From a bacterium (GTDB lineage: Bacteria > Patescibacteriota > Microgenomatia > Curtissbacterales > GWA2-41-24): a stretch of 64,000 bases of DNA. A program made the position numbers and the translations under genes. A model generated the notes under the pieces. That model made no database searches, was not told the origin of the DNA, and saw nothing but the letters and a program-made list of their open reading frames with translations. This document shows, in pieces, positions 1,294 to 63,433 of this stretch. The DNA is taken from NCBI GenBank assembly GCA_021813945.1, contig JAKAJD010000001.1, positions 335,072 through 399,071 on the forward strand, read 5' to 3'. Position 1 is the stretch's first letter; each line of letters begins with the position of its first letter.

Positions 1294-3858
1294 TCAATCG
1301 GTCCAAGGCTGGCCGACAGAAACAGTAATTTCAGAATCAGCACTTTTACCGGCTTCGTTATATGCTTTAACCTTTATTTTGTGTTTACCAGAAGAGGCTG
1401 AAGAAAATGTAAAATGAAACTTTACACTGCTATCAGAAGAATCGGTACTGTCCTTTAAAGTGCCATCAATATAAAATTCAGCTTTGGTAATTTTTCGACC
1501 GGTAGAAACAGTTGCTTGGGTGTCAAAGCTGTAATCCACCTGGTTATGATCTCCCGGCGAATCAATATGAACACTGATATCATCCGGGTTTTGATTAGGT
1601 TGGTTCAAAAGCTCCGCAGGAGGATGATATTTGGAATCACCTTGGCTTGCTTCCCAAGCGTTTATTCCTTGCTGCCAACGGTTAACTCCATCACCTGAAA
1701 CGGGATCGAATTCCTGAAAAACATAGTAATCTTGGCCGTTCATTTTTTTCTCAACTGCGCAATCTTTTGTAGGCTCGGTACCTTTGATAAAATATTCACT
1801 TCTAACGGGATATCCTGGACAAGGAAGCCCGCCACCAAACGCATCTACTTGAATAGCATTTACATTGTCTGGCTTCTGAAAACCTTCATCGCCTTTTCCC
1901 GAAAGAGCAGCCTGCATAATCTTATTCCAAATAGGAGTTGCACCTGTGACACCCGAAGCAATCTGCTGATTCATCGGAGTATTGTCGTTGTTGCCAACCC
2001 AGACACCAACTGCAACGGAAGGCGTGTAACCGATAGCCCAGTTGTCTCGCTTGTCATCAGTAGTTCCCGTTTTGACAGCAACAGTCTTAGCGGGTACAAC
2101 TAAAAGAGAATTCGGCCCAAACTCCATGCTCCTGGCATTGTTATCAGAAAGAATGTGCGAGATGATAAACGCAATATCTGGAGTAATCACTTGTTTTGGT
2201 TGAGAATCGGTTGCTTTATCTATCACCTTGCCGCTTGAGTCTTTTACTTCCAAAATTGCGACTGGGCTAAGCTGCTTTCCCGAATCGGCTAAAGTAGAAT
2301 ATCCGTCAACCAAATCTAAAAGCTTAACCTCACCGCCTCCCAGTGTAACCGCAAGCCCGAATCTTTTGAGATTTTCATCGGTTGGTTGAAGTGTCGTAAG
2401 GCCGGCATCGGATGCAGTTCTTAACATATTCTTAATACCAACCATACCGAGCATCTTAACCGCAGTCACGTTTATTGAATTACCCAACGCAAAACGAACC
2501 TGAATTGGACCCCTAAACTTGCCATCATAATTCACCGGCTTATACATAGGCTGCCCAGCCCCGCCAGGAAACTCGGTTGGAACATCCATAATAACTGTAG
2601 CTGCTGTATAACCCGCTTTTAGTCCCGTGGCATAGGTAAAAGGCTTTAAAGATGAACCAGGCTGTCTAAGGGCAAGCGCCACGTTTACCTGACCGTCGTA
2701 GTCTTTGGCAAAGTAATCTTTGGAACCAACCATTGCCAGAATTTGACCGGTTTTCGGCTCCATCACAACTGCAGCTCCGTTGCCAACATGATAATTTCCA
2801 AGTTTACTGACCTCGTCGGAAACAATTTGCTGGGCTTTATTTTGAAGGTCGAGATCGAGAGTTGTCTTAACGGAAAGACCCCCTTGTTCCACAAATTTGT
2901 CGCCGTATTTGGAAACTAAAAGGTCTCGAACATAAAAAACAAAATGGGGAGCGTTTATTCCTTGTGTATCCTGAACAAACTTAACATTTGGAATTTCGCT
3001 ATCTACTTGTTTTTCCTGATCGGATGTTATGTAATTATCCTCTCGCATTCTCCTGGCCACATCTTTGGCCCTGCCAACATAAGCTTTGGGATTTGTACCA
3101 AATGGGGAATAATAAGTCGGACTTTGTGGAAGTCCTGCCAAAATTACTGCCTCTGTGAGCGTTAAATCCTTGGCCTCCTTGCCGAAATAAGTCTGGGCAG
3201 CAGCCTCAATTCCCCACGCCGTACCACCATAAGGGACCTCGTTAAGATAGATCTGTAGAATTTCATCTTTGGTGTATTTGCGCTCAACCTGAACTGCCAA
3301 AATAAATTCTTTAATCTTTCGGGTAACTGACCGCTCGGGGGTAAGAAGCGTATTTTTGACAACTTGCTGGGTAATCGTCGATCCACCCTCAACCCTTCCA
3401 AAAACAACAGTGCTGATAAGCGATCTGGCGATTCCAGTAATCGAAAAACCGCCATGACTATAGAAATTTTTGTCCTCAATAGAAACTGTTGCCTGCTTTA
3501 CGTATGGCGGCAAGCCCTTCCAGTCTACAAGAGCCCGATTTTTTTCGCCGTGAATATCATAAAGCGGCTTCCCGTTTCTATCAAAGATCTTAGTAGAAAG
3601 AGAAGAATCATGGGTCGTTAGCTTATTCGGAGAGGGTAAATCCTTCGCAAAAATTACAAACAAAAAAAGAGTTCCCACAATTGCTGCAATAAGTCCAAAA
3701 AAGGTAACCGTTGTCACAAGTCCGAAAAATCTTATCCAAAAACGCCTTCTGTTAAATGAAGAATGTTCGTAAAATGGATGGTTATTTTGGGCCGTGGGAA
3801 TTCTGGAAATTCGGGAAGTAAATTTGCGTGCCCCTGGTCTGTACTGTGAAAATTTCAT
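1294..3858 (-). CDS. mrcA: class A penicillin-binding protein 1A (bifunctional GT51 transglycosylase and transpeptidase) with a C-terminal Ig/FN3-like extension
   Basis: N-terminal membrane anchor. GT51 motifs (GGSTITQQ..KN, RKIKE, YLNEVPYG). Transpeptidase module downstream. An extra beta-rich domain of about 110 aa at the C-terminus. Confidence 0.9.
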   Translation of the reverse strand: MKFSQYRPGARKFTSRISRIPTAQNNHPFYEHSSFNRRRFWIRFFGLVTTVTFFGLIAAIVGTLFLFVIFAKDLPSPNKLTTHDSSLSTKIFDRNGKPLYDIHGEKNRALVDWKGLPPYVKQATVSIEDKNFYSHGGFSITGIARSLISTVVFGRVEGGSTITQQVVKNTLLTPERSVTRKIKEFILAVQVERKYTKDEILQIYLNEVPYGGTAWGIEAAAQTYFGKEAKDLTLTEAVILAGLPQSPTYYSPFGTNPKAYVGRAKDVARRMREDNYITSDQEKQVDSEIPNVKFVQDTQGINAPHFVFYVRDLLVSKYGDKFVEQGGLSVKTTLDLDLQNKAQQIVSDEVSKLGNYHVGNGAAVVMEPKTGQILAMVGSKDYFAKDYDGQVNVALALRQPGSSLKPFTYATGLKAGYTAATVIMDVPTEFPGGAGQPMYKPVNYDGKFRGPIQVRFALGNSINVTAVKMLGMVGIKNMLRTASDAGLTTLQPTDENLKRFGLAVTLGGGEVKLLDLVDGYSTLADSGKQLSPVAILEVKDSSGKVIDKATDSQPKQVITPDIAFIISHILSDNNARSMEFGPNSLLVVPAKTVAVKTGTTDDKRDNWAIGYTPSVAVGVWVGNNDNTPMNQQIASGVTGATPIWNKIMQAALSGKGDEGFQKPDNVNAIQVDAFGGGLPCPGYPVRSEYFIKGTEPTKDCAVEKKMNGQDYYVFQEFDPVSGDGVNRWQQGINAWEASQGDSKYHPPAELLNQPNQNPDDISVHIDSPGDHNQVDYSFDTQATVSTGRKITKAEFYIDGTLKDSTDSSDSSVKFHFTFSSASSGKHKIKVKAYNEAGKSADSEITVSVGQPWTD

Positions 3859-3933
3859 GAAAGAAAGCTATTCGTTATTATATCGCCCCGCCCTAATTGC
3901 CTCAAGCCTTCCTTTCATTGTAATATCTACTCA

Positions 3934-5276: not shown

Positions 5277-5330
5277 AGGGCCTTGCGCTAATTTGACTAA
5301 AGACAATAGTCGATAGACAATAGTCGCATT

Positions 5331-7376
5331 ATGGACCCACAAACCCGGATTGAAGTACTTCCTGGTGTAGGCGACTTTTACGCAAAAAGGCTTGCCAAAC
5401 TAGATATCAAAACAATAGTCGACCTTATCTACCATTTTCCATTCCGTTACGACGATTTCTCCCAAATCGAAAGCATTGCCCGCGCAAACACAAACGAAAA
5501 AATTACAATCCAAGGCACAATCTGGCAGATTAAAAACATAAGAACGCCCAGAGGCAAATTTCTAACAACCGCAACTGTGGCAGACGAATCGGGAACTATA
5601 GAGATAATTTGGTTTAATCAGCCTTATCTGACCAAAACTCTAAAAGCTGGAACACCCGTTTCTCTTTCGGGAAAACTAGACCCTAAATCGCCTCGCCCAA
5701 AATTGGTCTCACCTTCCTACGAAGTCTTAAGAAACCAGTCACCTGTCACGAGTCATCAGTCACCAAATACTCTTCACACCGGCAGACTTGTCCCGATTTA
5801 TCCGGAAACCGAAGGCGTAACGTCCAAATGGCTACGGGCAAAAATAGGTGCAATCCTGCCTTTTTATGTCAAAACTTTAGACGATTTTCTACCCAAGGAG
5901 ATTGCCTCAAGGCAAAATTTAGAAGATTTAGAAAGCTCTCTTACAAAAATTCATTTCCCAAAAACCTACGATGATGTCGAAGAAGCTAGAAAACGCCTTG
6001 GCTTTGACGAGCTTTTCTTAACACAACTTGCATCGGCAATTAGAAAACGCGAGTGGCTTTCCCAAAAAATAGCTCCACAAATTAAAATTTCCCAGTCTGA
6101 TCTTCAAAATTTTCAAAATAATTTGCCCTTCACCTTAACAGATGCCCAAAAAAAAGCTATAGAAGATATTGTCTCGGATTTGGAAAGAAAAACCCCTGCC
6201 AACCGGCTTTTGGAAGGCGACGTCGGCTCCGGCAAAACTGTAGTTGCGGCAGCAGCTGCCTTGGCAGCATACAAAAACAATTTTGAAACAATTCTCGCAG
6301 CACCAACAGAAATACTAGCGTTTCAGCACCAAAAAACACTCTCGGAAATCTTTGCGCCATACGGAATCCAAATCGGGATCTGGACAGGCAGCAAAAAACA
6401 AAAAGGTGATATAACCTGCGGAACCCACGCTCTTCTTTCAACCTTCAAAAGCCAAAAACAAATCGGACTGGTGATTGTAGACGAACAACACCGCTTTGGC
6501 GTGGCCCAAAGGGCCAAACTTTTTATGGATCAGAACTTAAAACTTTCTCCACACGTTTTAACCATGACTGCTACACCCATTCCCAGGACCCTCGCCTTAA
6601 CTCTTTATGGGGACCTCGATCTTTCCGTTTTGGACGAAATGCCTAAAGGCCGGCAAAAAATTGCCACATTTGTTGTCCCTAACTTCAAACGGCAAGGTGC
6701 TTACGGTTTTATTGAAAAACAGGTTCAAGAGGGCAGGCAAGCGTTTATCTTAACACCCTTTGTTGAACCTTCCGAAACCTTAACCAGCGTAAAGGCTGCA
6801 AAGGTTGAATTTGAAAACTTAAAAGGTAAATTTTCAAAAAAAGTAAAACTGGGACTTTTGCATGGCCGTCTTAAATCCAAAGAAAAAGAAGAGATAATTA
6901 CCAAATTTAAAAACAATAAAATAAACGTCTTGGTAACAACTCCTGTAGTTGAAGTCGGAATAGATGTACCAAACGCAACCGTAATGCTCATTGAATCAGC
7001 AGAACGTTTCGGGTTAGCCCAACTCCATCAGCTCCGTGGGCGTGTCGGCAGGGGAGAGCATAAATCGTATTGCTTCTTATTTTCTGATTCTAGATCCGAA
7101 AATTCTATCAAACGCCTAAAAAGCATGGAGAAAGTTCATATCGGCTTTGAGCTTGCCGAAATTGACCTTAAAATGCGCGGCCCCGGTGAAATCTTCGGTC
7201 TAAAACAATCCGGCTTTTTCAATTTTAAAATTGCCGACATCACCGACCAAAAATCTGTCGCCGCAGCCCAAAACGAAGCCAAAAAACTTCTCGACTCAGA
7301 TCCCAGACTCAAAAACCACCTTCACCTCAAACAAAAACTCGAATCCGTCTCAAGCGAATACTCCCAGCCAAACTAA
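5331..7376 (+). CDS. recG: ATP-dependent DNA helicase RecG
   Basis: N-terminal wedge/HhH region (LPGVGDFYAKRL). Walker A motif GDVGSGKT. DEQH box. Helicase C motifs (QLHQLRGRVGRG). Confidence 0.9.
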   Translation: MDPQTRIEVLPGVGDFYAKRLAKLDIKTIVDLIYHFPFRYDDFSQIESIARANTNEKITIQGTIWQIKNIRTPRGKFLTTATVADESGTIEIIWFNQPYLTKTLKAGTPVSLSGKLDPKSPRPKLVSPSYEVLRNQSPVTSHQSPNTLHTGRLVPIYPETEGVTSKWLRAKIGAILPFYVKTLDDFLPKEIASRQNLEDLESSLTKIHFPKTYDDVEEARKRLGFDELFLTQLASAIRKREWLSQKIAPQIKISQSDLQNFQNNLPFTLTDAQKKAIEDIVSDLERKTPANRLLEGDVGSGKTVVAAAAALAAYKNNFETILAAPTEILAFQHQKTLSEIFAPYGIQIGIWTGSKKQKGDITCGTHALLSTFKSQKQIGLVIVDEQHRFGVAQRAKLFMDQNLKLSPHVLTMTATPIPRTLALTLYGDLDLSVLDEMPKGRQKIATFVVPNFKRQGAYGFIEKQVQEGRQAFILTPFVEPSETLTSVKAAKVEFENLKGKFSKKVKLGLLHGRLKSKEKEEIITKFKNNKINVLVTTPVVEVGIDVPNATVMLIESAERFGLAQLHQLRGRVGRGEHKSYCFLFSDSRSENSIKRLKSMEKVHIGFELAEIDLKMRGPGEIFGLKQSGFFNFKIADITDQKSVAAAQNEAKKLLDSDPRLKNHLHLKQKLESVSSEYSQPN

Positions 7377-26979: not shown

Positions 26980-27642
26980 ATGTACCCACAAAGTAAATTT
27001 CAATGCTACCTTATTATAGGAGAGCCCACAGATACTAAAACGGAATCTCAAAAGATCGCAAAAACACTTGGCGTTGACCTTAATAAAACATCACCCGATA
27101 TTTTCGAAATAGTGCCAGCAAAACAAAGCATCTCGATAGATGAGGTCAGAAACCTCAAAAAACATATATTTCAAAAACCTGTTAAGCTTCCTGTAAAAAT
27201 GATTATTTTTCGCGAAGCACACAAATTGACCCTCGAAGCCCAAAACGCGCTTTTAAAAATCCTCGAAGAACCGCCTGGAAAAGCCATAATAATTCTTGAA
27301 TCAGAAAACAAGCAAAATTTGCTCCCAACAATAAGATCAAGGGTCGTTATTCGCGAATTGAAAAAAGGAGGGGCCGAAAATTCAGATCTTTACCTTAACC
27401 ACAGCCTCGATAATTTGCTCGAACGGCTGCCGCTTATCGAAAACCACCAGAAATGGCTAGACATTCAAATAGAAATCGCCCACAGCCAAATAATAAAAAA
27501 TGCAAAAAGCTCAAAAAATACTCCAAAAGAAATCACAAATGCCATCGAGGCCTGCATAGCTACCAAAAAAATGATCTCGGCCAATGTCAACCCGACTTTT
27601 GCCATTGCAAATCTTTATCTTCAGACCGTGAAATCGGACTAA
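26980..27642 (+). CDS. holB: DNA polymerase III delta-prime subunit (clamp-loader AAA+ protein lacking a Walker A motif)
   Basis: Clamp-loader motifs NALLKILEEPP and TIRSRV (sensor/SRC). No P-loop. Confidence 0.72.
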   Translation: MYPQSKFQCYLIIGEPTDTKTESQKIAKTLGVDLNKTSPDIFEIVPAKQSISIDEVRNLKKHIFQKPVKLPVKMIIFREAHKLTLEAQNALLKILEEPPGKAIIILESENKQNLLPTIRSRVVIRELKKGGAENSDLYLNHSLDNLLERLPLIENHQKWLDIQIEIAHSQIIKNAKSSKNTPKEITNAIEACIATKKMISANVNPTFAIANLYLQTVKSD

Positions 27643-27670
27643 AAACTTAGCCTCAAAATAGCTTGCATAA

Positions 27671-29668
<1,998 letters not shown>

Positions 29669-30181
29669 ATGGACGCAAGAGCTACAGAACTTGAACCAAC
29701 TGTAAAAACGGTCATCTTAAACCAATCTTTCGGTTTTTTCGACAGGCCAGTTCCATCCGGCGACGATGAAATAATGGAAACAGCGGACATCAGAAATCCC
29801 GCCATGGAAAATCCTATAGGTGGCTTAATCGGCATCGCAAAAACAGATAACGGCCGAAGCATCACCGGCAATGATTCTTTACAAGTAGCCTTCGAAATTA
29901 GGGCAAAGGCAGAACGTCCAGGACAAACTCACCAGATACTTACAGGTCACCCTTTTCACAATCCTGTATTTTATATGGAAACACCTCAAGGCTTGTTTGC
30001 AAGCTTAGGGGAAAGATCCGGACAAAACACAGAGTCAATTCTTTTCGATCGATGGGTCGAAATCACTAACCGCCGCCAGGCTTCAAAGTCGGATATTGCT
30101 CAAATGGTCAGAAACAATAAAGCCCAGCCTAGACCTGTAAGATTAAGCGATCTCCCAAAAACAAAATTCAAAATAACCTAA
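29669..30181 (+). CDS. hypothetical protein encoded between gyrB and gyrA
   Basis: 170-aa ORF that fills the gap exactly: its ATG directly follows the gyrB stop, and its stop lies 1 nt before the gyrA ATG. No recognisable motif. Confidence 0.5.
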
Positions 30182-30182
30182 C

Positions 30183-32750
30183 ATGGCAGATATAGGCAAA
30201 ATCCAACCGGTCGAAATAACCACAGAAATGCAAAGGTCTTACCTCGACTACGCCATGTCGGTTATTGTCGCCCGCGCTCTTCCGGACGTGCGCGACGGCC
30301 TAAAACCGGTTCACCGCAGAATAATCTACGCCATGCAGAGAATGGGTGTCACCCATAGCGCCCATTACACCAAAAGTGCCAAGGTAGTCGGTGAAGTTTT
30401 AGGCAAATACCATCCGCACGGCGACACATCTGTCTACGACGCAATGGTCCGAATGGCCCAGGATTTTGCAATGCGAAACCCGCTTGTCGACGGCCAGGGG
30501 AACTTCGGTTCAGTCGACGGCGATTCTCCGGCTGCCATGCGTTATACCGAAGCGCGCCTTGCCACAATCGCAGAAACCCTGCTTTACGATTTAGACAAGG
30601 ACACAGTCGATTGGACCGACAACTTTGACGGCAGCCTCAAAGAACCTGTTTTTCTGCCTGCACTTCTTCCCAACCTTCTCATAAATGGTGCCTCGGGAAT
30701 TGCGGTCGGTATGGCCACAAATATTCCGCCTCATAACCTTGGAGAAATAATAGATGCCACCATTCAACTAATCGATAAACCGGAAAGTTCTATTGAAGAT
30801 TTGATGGAGCATGTTAAGGGTCCAGATTTCCCAACAGGTGCCCAAATCTACGACATATCGGAAATTACGGCAGCCTACGCCACTGGCCGGGGCAAAATTA
30901 TGATGCGTGCCAAAGCCGATATCGAAGAAACAAAAGGTGGGCGCTTCCAAATTGTCGTCACCGAAATCCCGTATCAGGTCAACAAAGCCGTTTTGGTTTC
31001 CAGAATCGCGGAGCTGGTAAAAGACAAGAAATTGGATGGCATCTCCGACCTTCGCGACGAATCAGACAGAAAAGGTCTTCGGGTTGTAATAGAGTTAAAG
31101 CGAGATGCCAAGCCAAAATCGGTTCTGAATAACCTTTACAAACATACTGCCCTTCAGCAATCGTTCCCTGTGAATACAGTCGCCCTTGTCGACGGCACTC
31201 CGCAGACTTTAACCCTCAAGATGATTCTTGAGGAATTCATAAAACATCGCCAGAGTGTCATTACCCGAAGAAGCAAATTTGAACTTGAAGAAGCCAGAAA
31301 ACGCGAACACATTTTGGAGGGATTAAAAATTGCCGTCGACAACATCGACGCGGTCATAGAGACTATCAAGAAGAGTAAGGATACAACCGATGCAAAAGTA
31401 AACTTGATGTCCAAATTCAAGCTTTCCGAAATCCAAGCTTTGGCAATTTTGGACATGCAGCTCAAGCGTCTGGCCGCGCTAGAACGTCAAAAGATAGAAG
31501 AAGAATTGGCCATGGTCCGCGAAGAAATTGCATATCTTGAAGATCTTCTTGCCCATCCGGAAAAAATCCTTCTGGTTGCCAAAAACGAACTTTTAAAACT
31601 CAAGGAACGTTTTGCAGAGCCCAGAAGAACAAGGGTTTTCAAACAGAAAATTGGAGAATTTTCGGAAGAAGACCTAATTGCTAACGAGCCGACAATCGTA
31701 ACAATCACTGTAGGAGGATATGTTAAGCGTCAGGACATCGGGTCTTTTAGAACCCAACGCCGCGGCGGAAAAGGTATCTCGGGAATCACCACCAAGGAAG
31801 AAGACACAGTTGCCCAGCTTATGGCAGCACAAACTCACGACTTTTTGCTATTTTTTACAGACCGCGGCCGTGTTTTCCAGCTCAAAGTCTGGGAGCTTCC
31901 GGAATCTTCCAGAACCGCCAAGGGTGTTGCAATAGTTAATCTTTTAGACCTTCAGGCAGAAGAAAAAGTGCTTTCTATTCTAAAGATTCAAAAAGCCTCA
32001 AAAGACAGTGGTGAAAAAGCGAAATATGTTATTTTGGCAACCAAAAACGGTGTTATCAAAAAATCCGAAATCGCAGCCTACGAAAATATCCGCAAAACCG
32101 GAATCATTGCTATAAAGTTAACCGCCGGCGATTATCTTAGATGGGCAAAACTCACAAAGGGTGACGATATTGTCTTTTTAATATCCAAAAAAGGTATGTC
32201 CATCAAGTTTTCTGAAAAAGATGTTCGTCCAATGGCCCGCGACACAATGGGCGTTCGCGGAATCAAAATCAAACCGGGAGATGAACTGATCGGTATGGAT
32301 GTTATCGACAAAGACGATATAAAAGCCGACCTTTTGGTAATAACCCAAAAAGGAATCGGCAAAAAAACCAGCGTTTCAGCTTGGCCCACACAGCTCAGGG
32401 GGGGGGTTGGAGTGAAAGCGGCAAACCTGGCGGATAAAACAGGGGATATAGTCAATGCCCAAATCCTCACAAAAGACGACGAAGGGATTATCCTAACAAG
32501 CCAAAAAGGTCAGGTGATGCGAACCACCTTAAGATCTGTCCCACGTCTAACCCGCGATACTCAGGGCGTAATTATCATGCGTCTTTCAGGCGAAGATAAA
32601 GTTGCGGCAGCAACAGTTATTCAGAAGAAAAAAGAAGATGAGCAAGATTTAGAAGGGGAAATTAAAAAAGAAACGCAAAAAGCAGCACCTAAAAAGCCGG
32701 TCAAAAAACCGGCACCAAAAAAACCTGTCCAGAAAGCAAAGAAAAAGTAA
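30183..32750 (+). CDS. gyrA: DNA gyrase subunit A with a lysine-rich C-terminal tail
   Basis: Active-site region [28 protein letters not shown]. GyrA-box and beta-pinwheel repeats. C-terminal tail [19 protein letters not shown]. Confidence 0.95.
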
Positions 32751-32774
32751 GATGGCAAAATCAAAAACAGTCTA

Positions 32775-32798
32775 AGGGCCCCTCGGGGTCTTTTTTTT
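32775..32798 (+). terminator. intrinsic terminator after gyrA (GC-rich stem GGGCCCCTCGGGGTC followed by T8)
   Basis: Hairpin followed by a run of 8 T within 50 nt of the gyrA stop codon. Confidence 0.6.
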
Positions 32799-32805
32799 AG
32801 AAAAC

Positions 32806-33876
32806 GTGAGCAACAAAAAAGCAAGACTAATTCTAGAAGACGGCACAATTATTGAAGGCCAGGCGTTCGGGGCATCAACCTCAAAAGCCGGTGAAGTTGT
32901 TTTTGCAACAGGCATGACAGGCTACGACCTTTCTTTAACCGACCCTTCCTATGCCGGGCAAATTCTGACATTTACTTATCCTCTCATCGGGAATTGGGGA
33001 GTGCCGCCAAAAGAATTTTGGGAATCGGAAAAAATCCACGTTGAAGGTGTCGTCATTTCAGACCTGACCACAAATCCCAACCACTGGCAAAACGAAAAGT
33101 CGTTAAACGATTGGCTCGTGGAACAAAACGTTCCGGCAATTGTCGGAATCGACACTAGAGCTCTCACTCAAAAACTACGCGAAAAAGGTGTGATGCTAGG
33201 AAAAATCTTGGTAGGAAATCAGGATGTCGACTTCATCGATCCAAATGAAAAAAATTTGGTTGCAGAAGTTTCGATCGCAGAAGTCAAAATTCACAAATCG
33301 CCAATATTAAATCATAAATCAGAAATCCGAATAGGGCTACTCAACTGCGGCGCAAAGAAAAACATTACACGTTGTCTTACAAATCGGGGAGCCACAGTTT
33401 ATGAACTTCCCTGGAATTTCGACCCGTTTGCCAGTAAACTGCCGCTCGACGGACTGGTTATCTCCAATGGTCCTGGCGATCCAAAAATGGCTAAAGAAAG
33501 CATCAATATAATAAAGAAGGCTCTTTCCAAAAAACTGCCAACATTCGGAATATGTCTTGGCAACCAGCTTTTGGCCCTCGCCGCCGGCGCCAACACTTAC
33601 AAATTAAAATTTGGTCATCGGGCCCAAAACCAACCAACAATCGAAGTCGGCACAAAACGCTGCTACATCACAACCCAAAATCATGGCTTTGCAGTTGATG
33701 ACAAAAAGCTTCCGGACGGTTTCAAAAAATGGTTCACAAACGCCAATGACGGCTCAAACGAGGGGATCATACACTCAAAACTCCCTTTTATGAGCGTCCA
33801 GTTTCACCCCGAAAGTTTCCCTGGCCCGACAGATACCGAATTTTTATTCGATAAATTTATGGAGAATTTTAAATGA
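32806..33876 (+). CDS. carA: carbamoyl-phosphate synthase small (glutaminase) subunit
   Basis: CarA N-terminal domain (LILEDGTIIEGQAFGA). Class I GATase Cys in the GICLGNQ motif. Confidence 0.9.
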   Translation: MSNKKARLILEDGTIIEGQAFGASTSKAGEVVFATGMTGYDLSLTDPSYAGQILTFTYPLIGNWGVPPKEFWESEKIHVEGVVISDLTTNPNHWQNEKSLNDWLVEQNVPAIVGIDTRALTQKLREKGVMLGKILVGNQDVDFIDPNEKNLVAEVSIAEVKIHKSPILNHKSEIRIGLLNCGAKKNITRCLTNRGATVYELPWNFDPFASKLPLDGLVISNGPGDPKMAKESINIIKKALSKKLPTFGICLGNQLLALAAGANTYKLKFGHRAQNQPTIEVGTKRCYITTQNHGFAVDDKKLPDGFKKWFTNANDGSNEGIIHSKLPFMSVQFHPESFPGPTDTEFLFDKFMENFK

Positions 33877-63341: not shown

Positions 63342-63426
63342 GGCCGGGTGCTGGAACTGGTAGACAGTTACGTCTCAAAAACGTATGGGCTTAACGCCCG
63401 TGAGGGTTCGACTCCCTCCCCGGCTA
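63342..63426 (+). tRNA. tRNA-Leu (anticodon CAA), class II with a long variable arm
   Basis: Hand-folded: 7-bp acceptor stem GGCCGGG/CCCGGCT, 3-bp D stem with a GG loop, 5-bp anticodon stem TACGT/ACGTA, loop CTCAAAA (U33, anticodon CAA), 4-bp variable stem, T arm GAGGG-TTCGACT-CCCTC, discriminator A. Confidence 0.8.
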
Positions 63427-63433
63427 CAAATAT

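Follow-up and report, generated by a model that had tools for sequence, protein, structure and literature searches.

Between gyrB and gyrA lies a genuine gene that is under purifying selection. Its 170-residue product, here called X, is by sequence comparison the first member of a new, clade-restricted and fast-evolving family. From gene linkage and apparent translational coupling, we tentatively propose that X is a non-enzymatic binding or protective factor associated with gyrase, a reading that we hold to be possible rather than probable. DNA gyrase, an essential enzyme, is among the main targets of antibiotics and toxins, and to our knowledge the known protein modulators of the enzyme (Qnr/MfpA, GyrI, YacG, CcdB, ParE and others) are all encoded elsewhere in the genome. 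A literature search for described gene families located between the two gyrase genes, or for partners of gyrase in CPR/Curtissbacteria, returned nothing relevant.

X was located in a 64-kb window (the whole stretch of DNA analysed, 64,000 nucleotides), where the genes around it are arranged as follows:

26980..27642, + strand, holB-like gene (DNA polymerase III delta' family), opening the co-oriented block upstream of gyrB
27740..29668, + strand, gyrB, 642 aa from the ATG at 27740, C-terminus NATLDI and then TAA
29669..30181, + strand, X, 170 aa, with a TAA stop
30183..32750, + strand, gyrA, 855 aa, with a Lys-rich C-terminal tail
32774-32793, + strand, terminator-like GC hairpin and T-run just 3' of gyrA, a consensus match only

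Orthologs of the holB-like gene in loci L002, L006, L087 and L089 match PF13177 (DNA_pol3_delta2) in Pfam. The start of gyrB was set by its 642-aa orthologs, which carry HATPase_c, DNA_gyraseB, Toprim and DNA_gyraseB_C domains; the mechanical ORF start is a TTG at 27692. The initial annotation had placed an ATG immediately after gyrB and the stop of the new ORF 1 nt before the gyrA ATG, and this is exact to the base: the X ATG (29669) follows the gyrB stop with a 0-nt spacer, and a single base (c) separates the X TAA from the gyrA ATG (30183). The gap between the gyrase genes is indeed entirely coding, being filled by ORF 29669-30181. The description of the ORF as unannotated holds as far as function is concerned, none having been assigned, but not for the ORF itself, which has been called by public gene callers (P0001 in NCBI, ENA and Logan).

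No recognisable Shine-Dalgarno sequence precedes X or gyrA, and GC content and skews show no break across the gyrB-X-gyrA region. The hairpin downstream of gyrA, with 8 pairs, is the sole strong + strand terminator-like site in 27000-33000, and is likely to mark the 3' end of a gyrB-X-gyrA transcript. Two further + strand sites, of 5 pairs each, lie within gyrB and within gyrA, and none was found in the gap between them. An Rfam scan of the whole window at the gathering threshold gave no match, and thus no RNA element in the gyrB-gyrA interval; ARAGORN placed a tRNA-Leu(CAA) at window 63342-63427, though the same scan had given none. On the - strand, a 135-aa antisense ORF (window 29464-29871) spans the 3' end of gyrB and the 5' end of X. 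It is most likely a by-product of sense-gene composition, since gyrB and gyrA carry comparable antisense ORFs along their whole length.

A word-indexed search of 5.8 billion proteins identified an identical protein and orthologs at 86, 83, 82 and 59% identity, in which the reading frame is preserved. For the three pairs with unsaturated dS, the Nei-Gojobori method gave dN/dS values of 0.07, 0.09 and 0.11, clearly away from the ratio of about 1 that the initial annotation had named as evidence against a coding region; the X protein is therefore under strong purifying selection. In the same genomes the ratio is 0.02-0.03 for gyrB and ~0.02 for gyrA, and dN of X is ~2-4 times that of gyrase. Were X a chance ORF, or a stretch of gyrB or gyrA extended by mis-assembly or frameshift, the reading frame that it shares with gyrB in the window (TAA then ATG) would be compatible with this, but we find such an artefact hardly credible. 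The termini of GyrB and GyrA are canonical and the proteins full-length, the stop codons and the separate ORF recur in independent assemblies and species, and dN/dS is ~0.1. In addition, the frame relation to the neighbours varies, with a gyrB-X spacer of +4 nt in L001 and an overlap of -4 nt in L087, and 0, 1, 4 or 6 nt before gyrA. Fusion of X to GyrB or GyrA by readthrough or frameshifting was ruled out, as these frame relations differ between lineages.

When 1.84 billion cluster representatives were searched exhaustively with a HMMER profile, about a dozen further full-length relatives came to light, with profile E-values from 6e-56 to 1e-4. The family thus comprises ~17 relatives of 165-190 aa with full-length similarity, annotated as Patescibacteria or Candidatus Curtissbacteria; the window protein shares this full-length similarity, the invariant residues and the site just upstream of gyrA. 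In an alignment of 19 sequences (A2), D2, F21, F24, F75, G114 and W129 (window numbering) are invariant, and G51, G55, G93, P95, F126, P154 and L162 nearly so. These conserved positions are core, turn and hydrophobic ones (hydrophobic residues, Gly and Pro), with no catalytic-looking constellation. Giant repetitive proteins with Calx-beta-like and similar arrays (P0016-P0019) were rejected, their scores being summed weak repeat matches and not homology. A pattern scan of JGI metagenomes with X alignment A3 gave 292 matches and 0 confirmed members, and no X homologs were found in 80 other gyrA loci.

Searches of Pfam, NCBIfam, PADLOC, PHROGs and PDB sequences gave no match for X alone, for the 19-member profile or for the members singly. 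Of the two checks that the initial annotation had suggested, homology and structure prediction, the first thus matched no known family, and for the second an AlphaFold2 model was obtained. Its pLDDT was 67.6 with five sequences and rose to 82.5, with a pTM of 0.77, when the 19-member alignment was employed. The model predicts ~11 beta-strands arranged as a sandwich, followed by two short C-terminal helices. Residues 1-9 are disordered in it, yet they hold the invariant Asp2, and the loop at 81-99, of low confidence, falls where indels are frequent in the alignment. X is hydrophilic (GRAVY ~-0.6) and carries no signal peptide; as previously proposed it has no TM segment, the highest 19-residue Kyte-Doolittle mean being 0.33. 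Cys is absent from X and from almost all family members, and the window protein has a net charge of 0 and a pI of 6.8, with family net charges ranging from -9 to +5. No gyrase-related fold or motif was found in X. Owing to the lack of a catalytic constellation and of Cys, the hydrophilic character and the variable, near-neutral charge, X looks like a cytoplasmic protein-binding module, with no resemblance to an enzyme, to a DNA mimic or, in any obvious way, to a DNA binder. Generic beta-sandwich interaction modules (MATH/TRAF, CBM56/CBM21, Ig-like) are among the closest known systems.

The position of X was compared across 14 distinct lineages with recovered context, namely the window, L002, L006, L001, L087, L093, L088/L100, L089, L094, L095, L096, L007/L103, L097 and the P0022 contig; members P0007, P0009, P0011, P0012 and P0015 stand outside this count. 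In 14/14 lineages X lies within the gyrB-to-gyrA interval, at X identities down to 23-27%, and the orthologous gyrB-X-gyrA linkage thus exists in relatives. The order is gyrB-X-gyrA in the window, L002-L005, L006 and L001, and gyrB-X in L087 and L093, where the contig runs out at the start of gyrA or a few bases into it. The P0022 contig displays the same three-gene size pattern and was scored by gene sizes alone. In the remaining lineages (L088/L100, L089, L094, L095, L096, L097 and L007/L103) a further gene, Y, precedes X, giving gyrB-Y-X-gyrA. Additional occupants of the interval, all from related loci, are as follows:

L089:4765-5067, Y, absent from the window
L088:436-735, Y, absent from the window
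L007:5171-5485, Y, absent from the window
L094:104-403, Y, absent from the window
L095:408-689, Y, absent from the window
L096:199-489, Y, absent from the window
L007:2050-5137, Z, four copies
L101:4392-4952, Z
L104:2472-3272, Z
L103:2-1153, Z
L007:3430-3975, TrpR-like gene (PF01371), in the gyrB-gyrA interval alongside the Z copies

The ~100-aa protein Y consists of a polar stretch of ~45 residues at the N-terminus and two very well conserved hydrophobic helices (2-TM). Its motif is ...SQIAxGxxGTxGLIxFALGxENL...SGLxxKKL, and it has no Pfam match. About half of the lineages have Y ahead of X, frequently with a 4-nt overlap (as in L089 and L096), and in the same genomes it is 49-68% identical where X is 23-51% identical. 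With 75 clusters, Y is also much more widespread than X, and nine independent JGI loci retrieved through it all read gyrB...Y...gyrA. Z (~175-215 aa, N-terminus MDPTPE...) was seen only inside the gyrB-gyrA interval, in L007 as four tandem copies and in L103, L101/L102 and L104. The joining of X and Z into one superfamily was ruled out by an hhalign probability of 0.8%, and no X paralogs and no relatives of Y or Z were found elsewhere within the window. In L095, positions 187-407, between gyrB and Y, hold a small hydrophobic ORF of ~73 aa (MKEATFVLATALATLLANIF...).

The distance from the X stop to the gyrA ATG is 0-6 nt in 10/12 lineages and 36-42 nt in the other two, which argues for co-transcription and putative translational coupling. 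The co-transcription with both gyrase genes that the initial annotation had expected is well supported by this spacing and by the lack of an internal + strand terminator-like site. In L007, X adjoins gyrA even though ~4 kb of other genes stand between X and gyrB. This adjacency suggests a need for co-production with GyrA specifically, and we regard it as the strongest argument for reading X as a gyrase partner.

Not all relatives carry X. The initial annotation had taken adjacent gyrB and gyrA genes without the ORF as evidence against its proposal, and exactly this arrangement was found in L008, the nearest reference-genome relative by GyrA (69%), in which the gyrB-gyrA gap is ~2 nt and X, Y and Z are missing; X is nevertheless present in the 14 lineages described above. 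L099, L101/L102 and L104 also lack X and keep Y, as gyrB...Y...gyrA. X can therefore be dispensed with and is no universal subunit of gyrase. The gyrA gene of L008 is itself split by an apparent frameshift near codon 75 (L008:1456-1700; ORFs 1456-1689 and 1607-3925); an assembly error in this short MAG contig is the probable cause. In L009, mur genes separate gyrB and gyrA, and the gap measures 19-200 nt in Firmicutes and Chloroflexi. A GyrA neighbour-joining tree places X and Y as ancestral to the clade, each having been lost independently several times. No obvious GyrA changes correlate with X, the N-terminal 80 residues being nearly identical in lineages with and without it. The window GyrA ends in a basic, Lys/Pro-rich tail; similar tails occur in L101 and L104, which lack X, and the tail is thus uncorrelated with its presence.

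These observations can be accommodated by a mechanism in which X, GyrB and GyrA would be translated from a single mRNA, with stop-start coupling on either side of X (0 nt and 1 nt) tying its synthesis to that of the gyrase subunits. As a predicted beta-sandwich binding module with a short, conserved, disordered N-terminal peptide, X would act as an accessory or protective factor that binds to DNA gyrase or to its complex with DNA, and where the 2-TM protein Y is present the two may act together at the membrane. Fast divergence and cassette-like replacement, described below, suggest that the binding surface of X could lie at an interface of evolutionary conflict, for example in shielding gyrase from phage-, host- or competitor-encoded poisons. 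Against a partnership with gyrase stand the dispensability of X, the absence of any visible correlated change in gyrase and the gathering of unrelated genes in the gap; moreover, synteny inside one clade can be inherited and not selected.

Indeed, X, together with Y if present, could be a passenger unrelated to gyrase. The gap would then be a permissive, constitutively expressed slot, in which X stays by inheritance since relocation would require a new promoter. We hold this explanation to be doubtful, yet nearly as good as that of a gyrase partner, the other alternatives being less likely. The content of the interval varies by lineage from 0 to 7 extra genes, that is, none (L008), X, Y, Y with X, Z with Y, or four Z copies with the TrpR-like gene, Y and X (L007); as the gap also gathers Y, Z and a TrpR-like gene, the position of X alone is weaker evidence for a link to gyrase. 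The independent losses of X and Y, the functionally mixed surroundings of the "operon" (holB upstream, carA/carB downstream) and the lack of a gyrase-related fold or motif agree with a passenger as well. It is less easily reconciled with the finding that X is never seen elsewhere (~17 family members, 14 contexts), or with its remaining 0-6 nt upstream of gyrA even when genes intervene toward gyrB. Conserved gene order with tight coupling usually reflects a need for stoichiometric co-production, and the coupling of X to one neighbour over >75% divergence would point the same way.

The tight spacing could alternatively serve in cis. Ribosomes would be passed from gyrB to gyrA by termination-reinitiation over a coupling ORF that sets the GyrB:GyrA ratio, with the protein itself secondary. 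The 0-nt and 1-nt spacers without a recognisable Shine-Dalgarno sequence are as expected for such an ORF, and so is the fact that the occupant can be swapped for an unrelated-looking ORF of ~170 aa (L097 versus L098; L105). We nonetheless judge this improbable, given that the amino-acid sequence of X is under strong purifying selection, that its predicted fold is well packed with conserved core residues, and that relatives cope with gyrB-gyrA or Y-gyrA directly adjoining.

The swap was seen in L097 and L098, both from metagenome Ga0209542, which are 99% identical in GyrB, 88% in Y and 98% in GyrA, with flanks at 91-93% nucleotide identity. Their slot ORFs of ~170 aa (L097:1406-1944 and L098:2234-2755) share no nucleotide similarity by BLASTN; the match between the two contigs breaks off precisely at the slot start codon and returns ~6 nt before the gyrA ATG. 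The L097 ORF is a bona fide X (profile E = 2e-23); that of L098 is a very remote relative at best, with a marginal hhalign P of 4e-4 over the C-terminal 70 columns only. The slot ORF of L105 was rejected as a member, having no detectable likeness to X, and weakly resembles that of L098; global identities below ~0.3 among slot ORFs are at noise level. Judged from the alignments, the L097/L098 difference has the form of a clean cassette replacement inside an essential operon. Such a replacement between near-identical backbones lends indirect support to the putative protective or immunity-like role that the initial annotation had raised. In the trio formed by the window, L002 and L006, dS of X is not elevated, and X has therefore co-diverged with its flanks. 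The family thus shows vertical descent with purifying selection within allele classes, plus at least one clean cassette replacement. A second putative trace of exchange is found in L002:9887-10000, and likewise in L003, L004 and L005, where gyrB and X are separated by a 114-nt insert that gene calling reads as a 37-aa ORF. The final 40 nt of the insert repeat the gyrB 3' end in a form closer to the window gyrB than to the resident one, and we regard the insert as a probable recombination footprint on the upstream side of X.

Such exchange could be taken as the mark of a selfish, addiction or toxin-antitoxin-like cassette, with X or Y-X retained inside an essential operon since its loss or a nonsense mutation would be polar on gyrA, or acting as a gyrase-directed toxin or antitoxin. 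The Y-X overlap of 4 nt in L089 and L096 resembles that of many toxin-antitoxin pairs, and the L097/L098 swap and the L002 footprint are in keeping with such a cassette. The operon is also a target of selfish elements in L100, where gyrB (L100:1412-4654) encodes 1081 aa and carries, at the Toprim region, an intein with an HNH homing-endonuclease domain (Intein_splicing, HNH_3). We consider a cassette of this kind quite unlikely. The two are no obligate pair, since the window clade, L087 and L093 have X and lack Y, and the reverse is seen in L099, L101 and L104; Y, as a 2-TM membrane protein, would be an atypical antitoxin; PADLOC gave no match and Pfam no toxin or antitoxin match. Clean deletions of X occur and are tolerated (L008, L099), and dN/dS of ~0.1 indicates selection on the protein beyond an open frame. 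X is no remnant of a homing endonuclease or intein either by Pfam, which gave no match to LAGLIDADG, HNH, GIY-YIG or splicing blocks; the same search found Intein_splicing and HNH_3 in the L100 gyrB, which served as a positive control.

The L097/L098 locus bears a resemblance to hypervariable islands (defence/immunity, surface-antigen), in that near-identical flanks enclose diverged occupants and footprints lie at the borders (L002). It differs from them in being a single ORF of ~0.5 kb inside an essential, translationally coupled operon, and not a multi-gene segment between independent transcription units; nor does any known defence family match X. A bolder form of the gyrase proposal would make X a hypervariable "gyrase guardian", that is, a shield or decoy against gyrase poisons. 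Strains living side by side would trade alleles of X through recombination in the conserved flanks (gyrB/Y and gyrA), and the 2-TM protein Y might anchor X to the membrane. This we regard as unlikely. If true, it would represent a new class of target protection or immunity built into the operon of the very enzyme that it protects.

The proposal that X protects or modulates gyrase draws on a functional analogy with Qnr, MfpA, McbG and AlbG. These are small non-enzymatic pentapeptide-repeat proteins whose sole known job is to bind and protect or modulate gyrase; they are built of A(D/N)LXX tandem repeats (PF00805) folded into a right-handed quadrilateral beta-helix, and they evolve amid gyrase poisons. 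A protective or decoy role of X against such poisons would fit this likeness. We know of no pentapeptide-repeat gene of this group between gyrB and gyrA. X itself is not a pentapeptide-repeat protein, as the initial annotation had stated: no Pfam match was obtained at E<=10, none of the 19 members has repeats, the model is a beta-sandwich with C-terminal helices instead of a beta-helix, and the charges given above are not those of an acidic DNA mimic. GyrI/SbmC, YacG, CcdB and ParE, at 60-160 aa, are small as well and exert their effect through binding to GyrA or GyrB. In contrast to YacG, X has no four-Cys zinc finger (~60 aa) and indeed no Cys; the GyrI-like (SHS2) domain PF06445 of GyrI/SbmC is missing from it; and it has no Pfam or PADLOC match to CcdB, ParE or other type II toxin-antitoxin proteins. 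Unlike type II systems, X in the window has no small partner gene, being directly flanked by gyrB and gyrA, and X and Y occur independently. As far as these comparisons reach, X seems akin to small proteins associated with topoisomerase genes, yet without homology to any of them.

Rv0004/DciA offers a precedent: once an uncharacterised small ORF of the ori-proximal dnaA-dnaN-recF-gyrB-gyrA cluster, it turned out to belong to the replication machinery (PMC5720831). The DciA gene stands upstream of gyrB, in an operon of its own, and its product is a highly basic DUF721 protein with a pI of ~12 (PMC5720831). X differs in having no DUF721/PF05258 match, in its pI of 6.8 and in its site between gyrB and gyrA.

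A selectively maintained X that is gyrase-coupled or cassette-swapped would, if confirmed, represent a new mode of topoisomerase regulation or protection, and a true link to gyrase would open a view on conflict biology in uncultivated Patescibacteria. Even if X is unrelated to gyrase, an unusual hypervariable slot in an essential operon is documented here, along with two or three new orphan families (X, Y and Z) for the Curtissbacteria-like lineage. In one of the loci, downstream of gyrA, carA is flanked by two 129-aa genes of the 23S_rRNA_IVP/bAvd family (L096:3767-4156 and 5289-5678); bAvd-like proteins are accessory proteins of diversity-generating retroelements.
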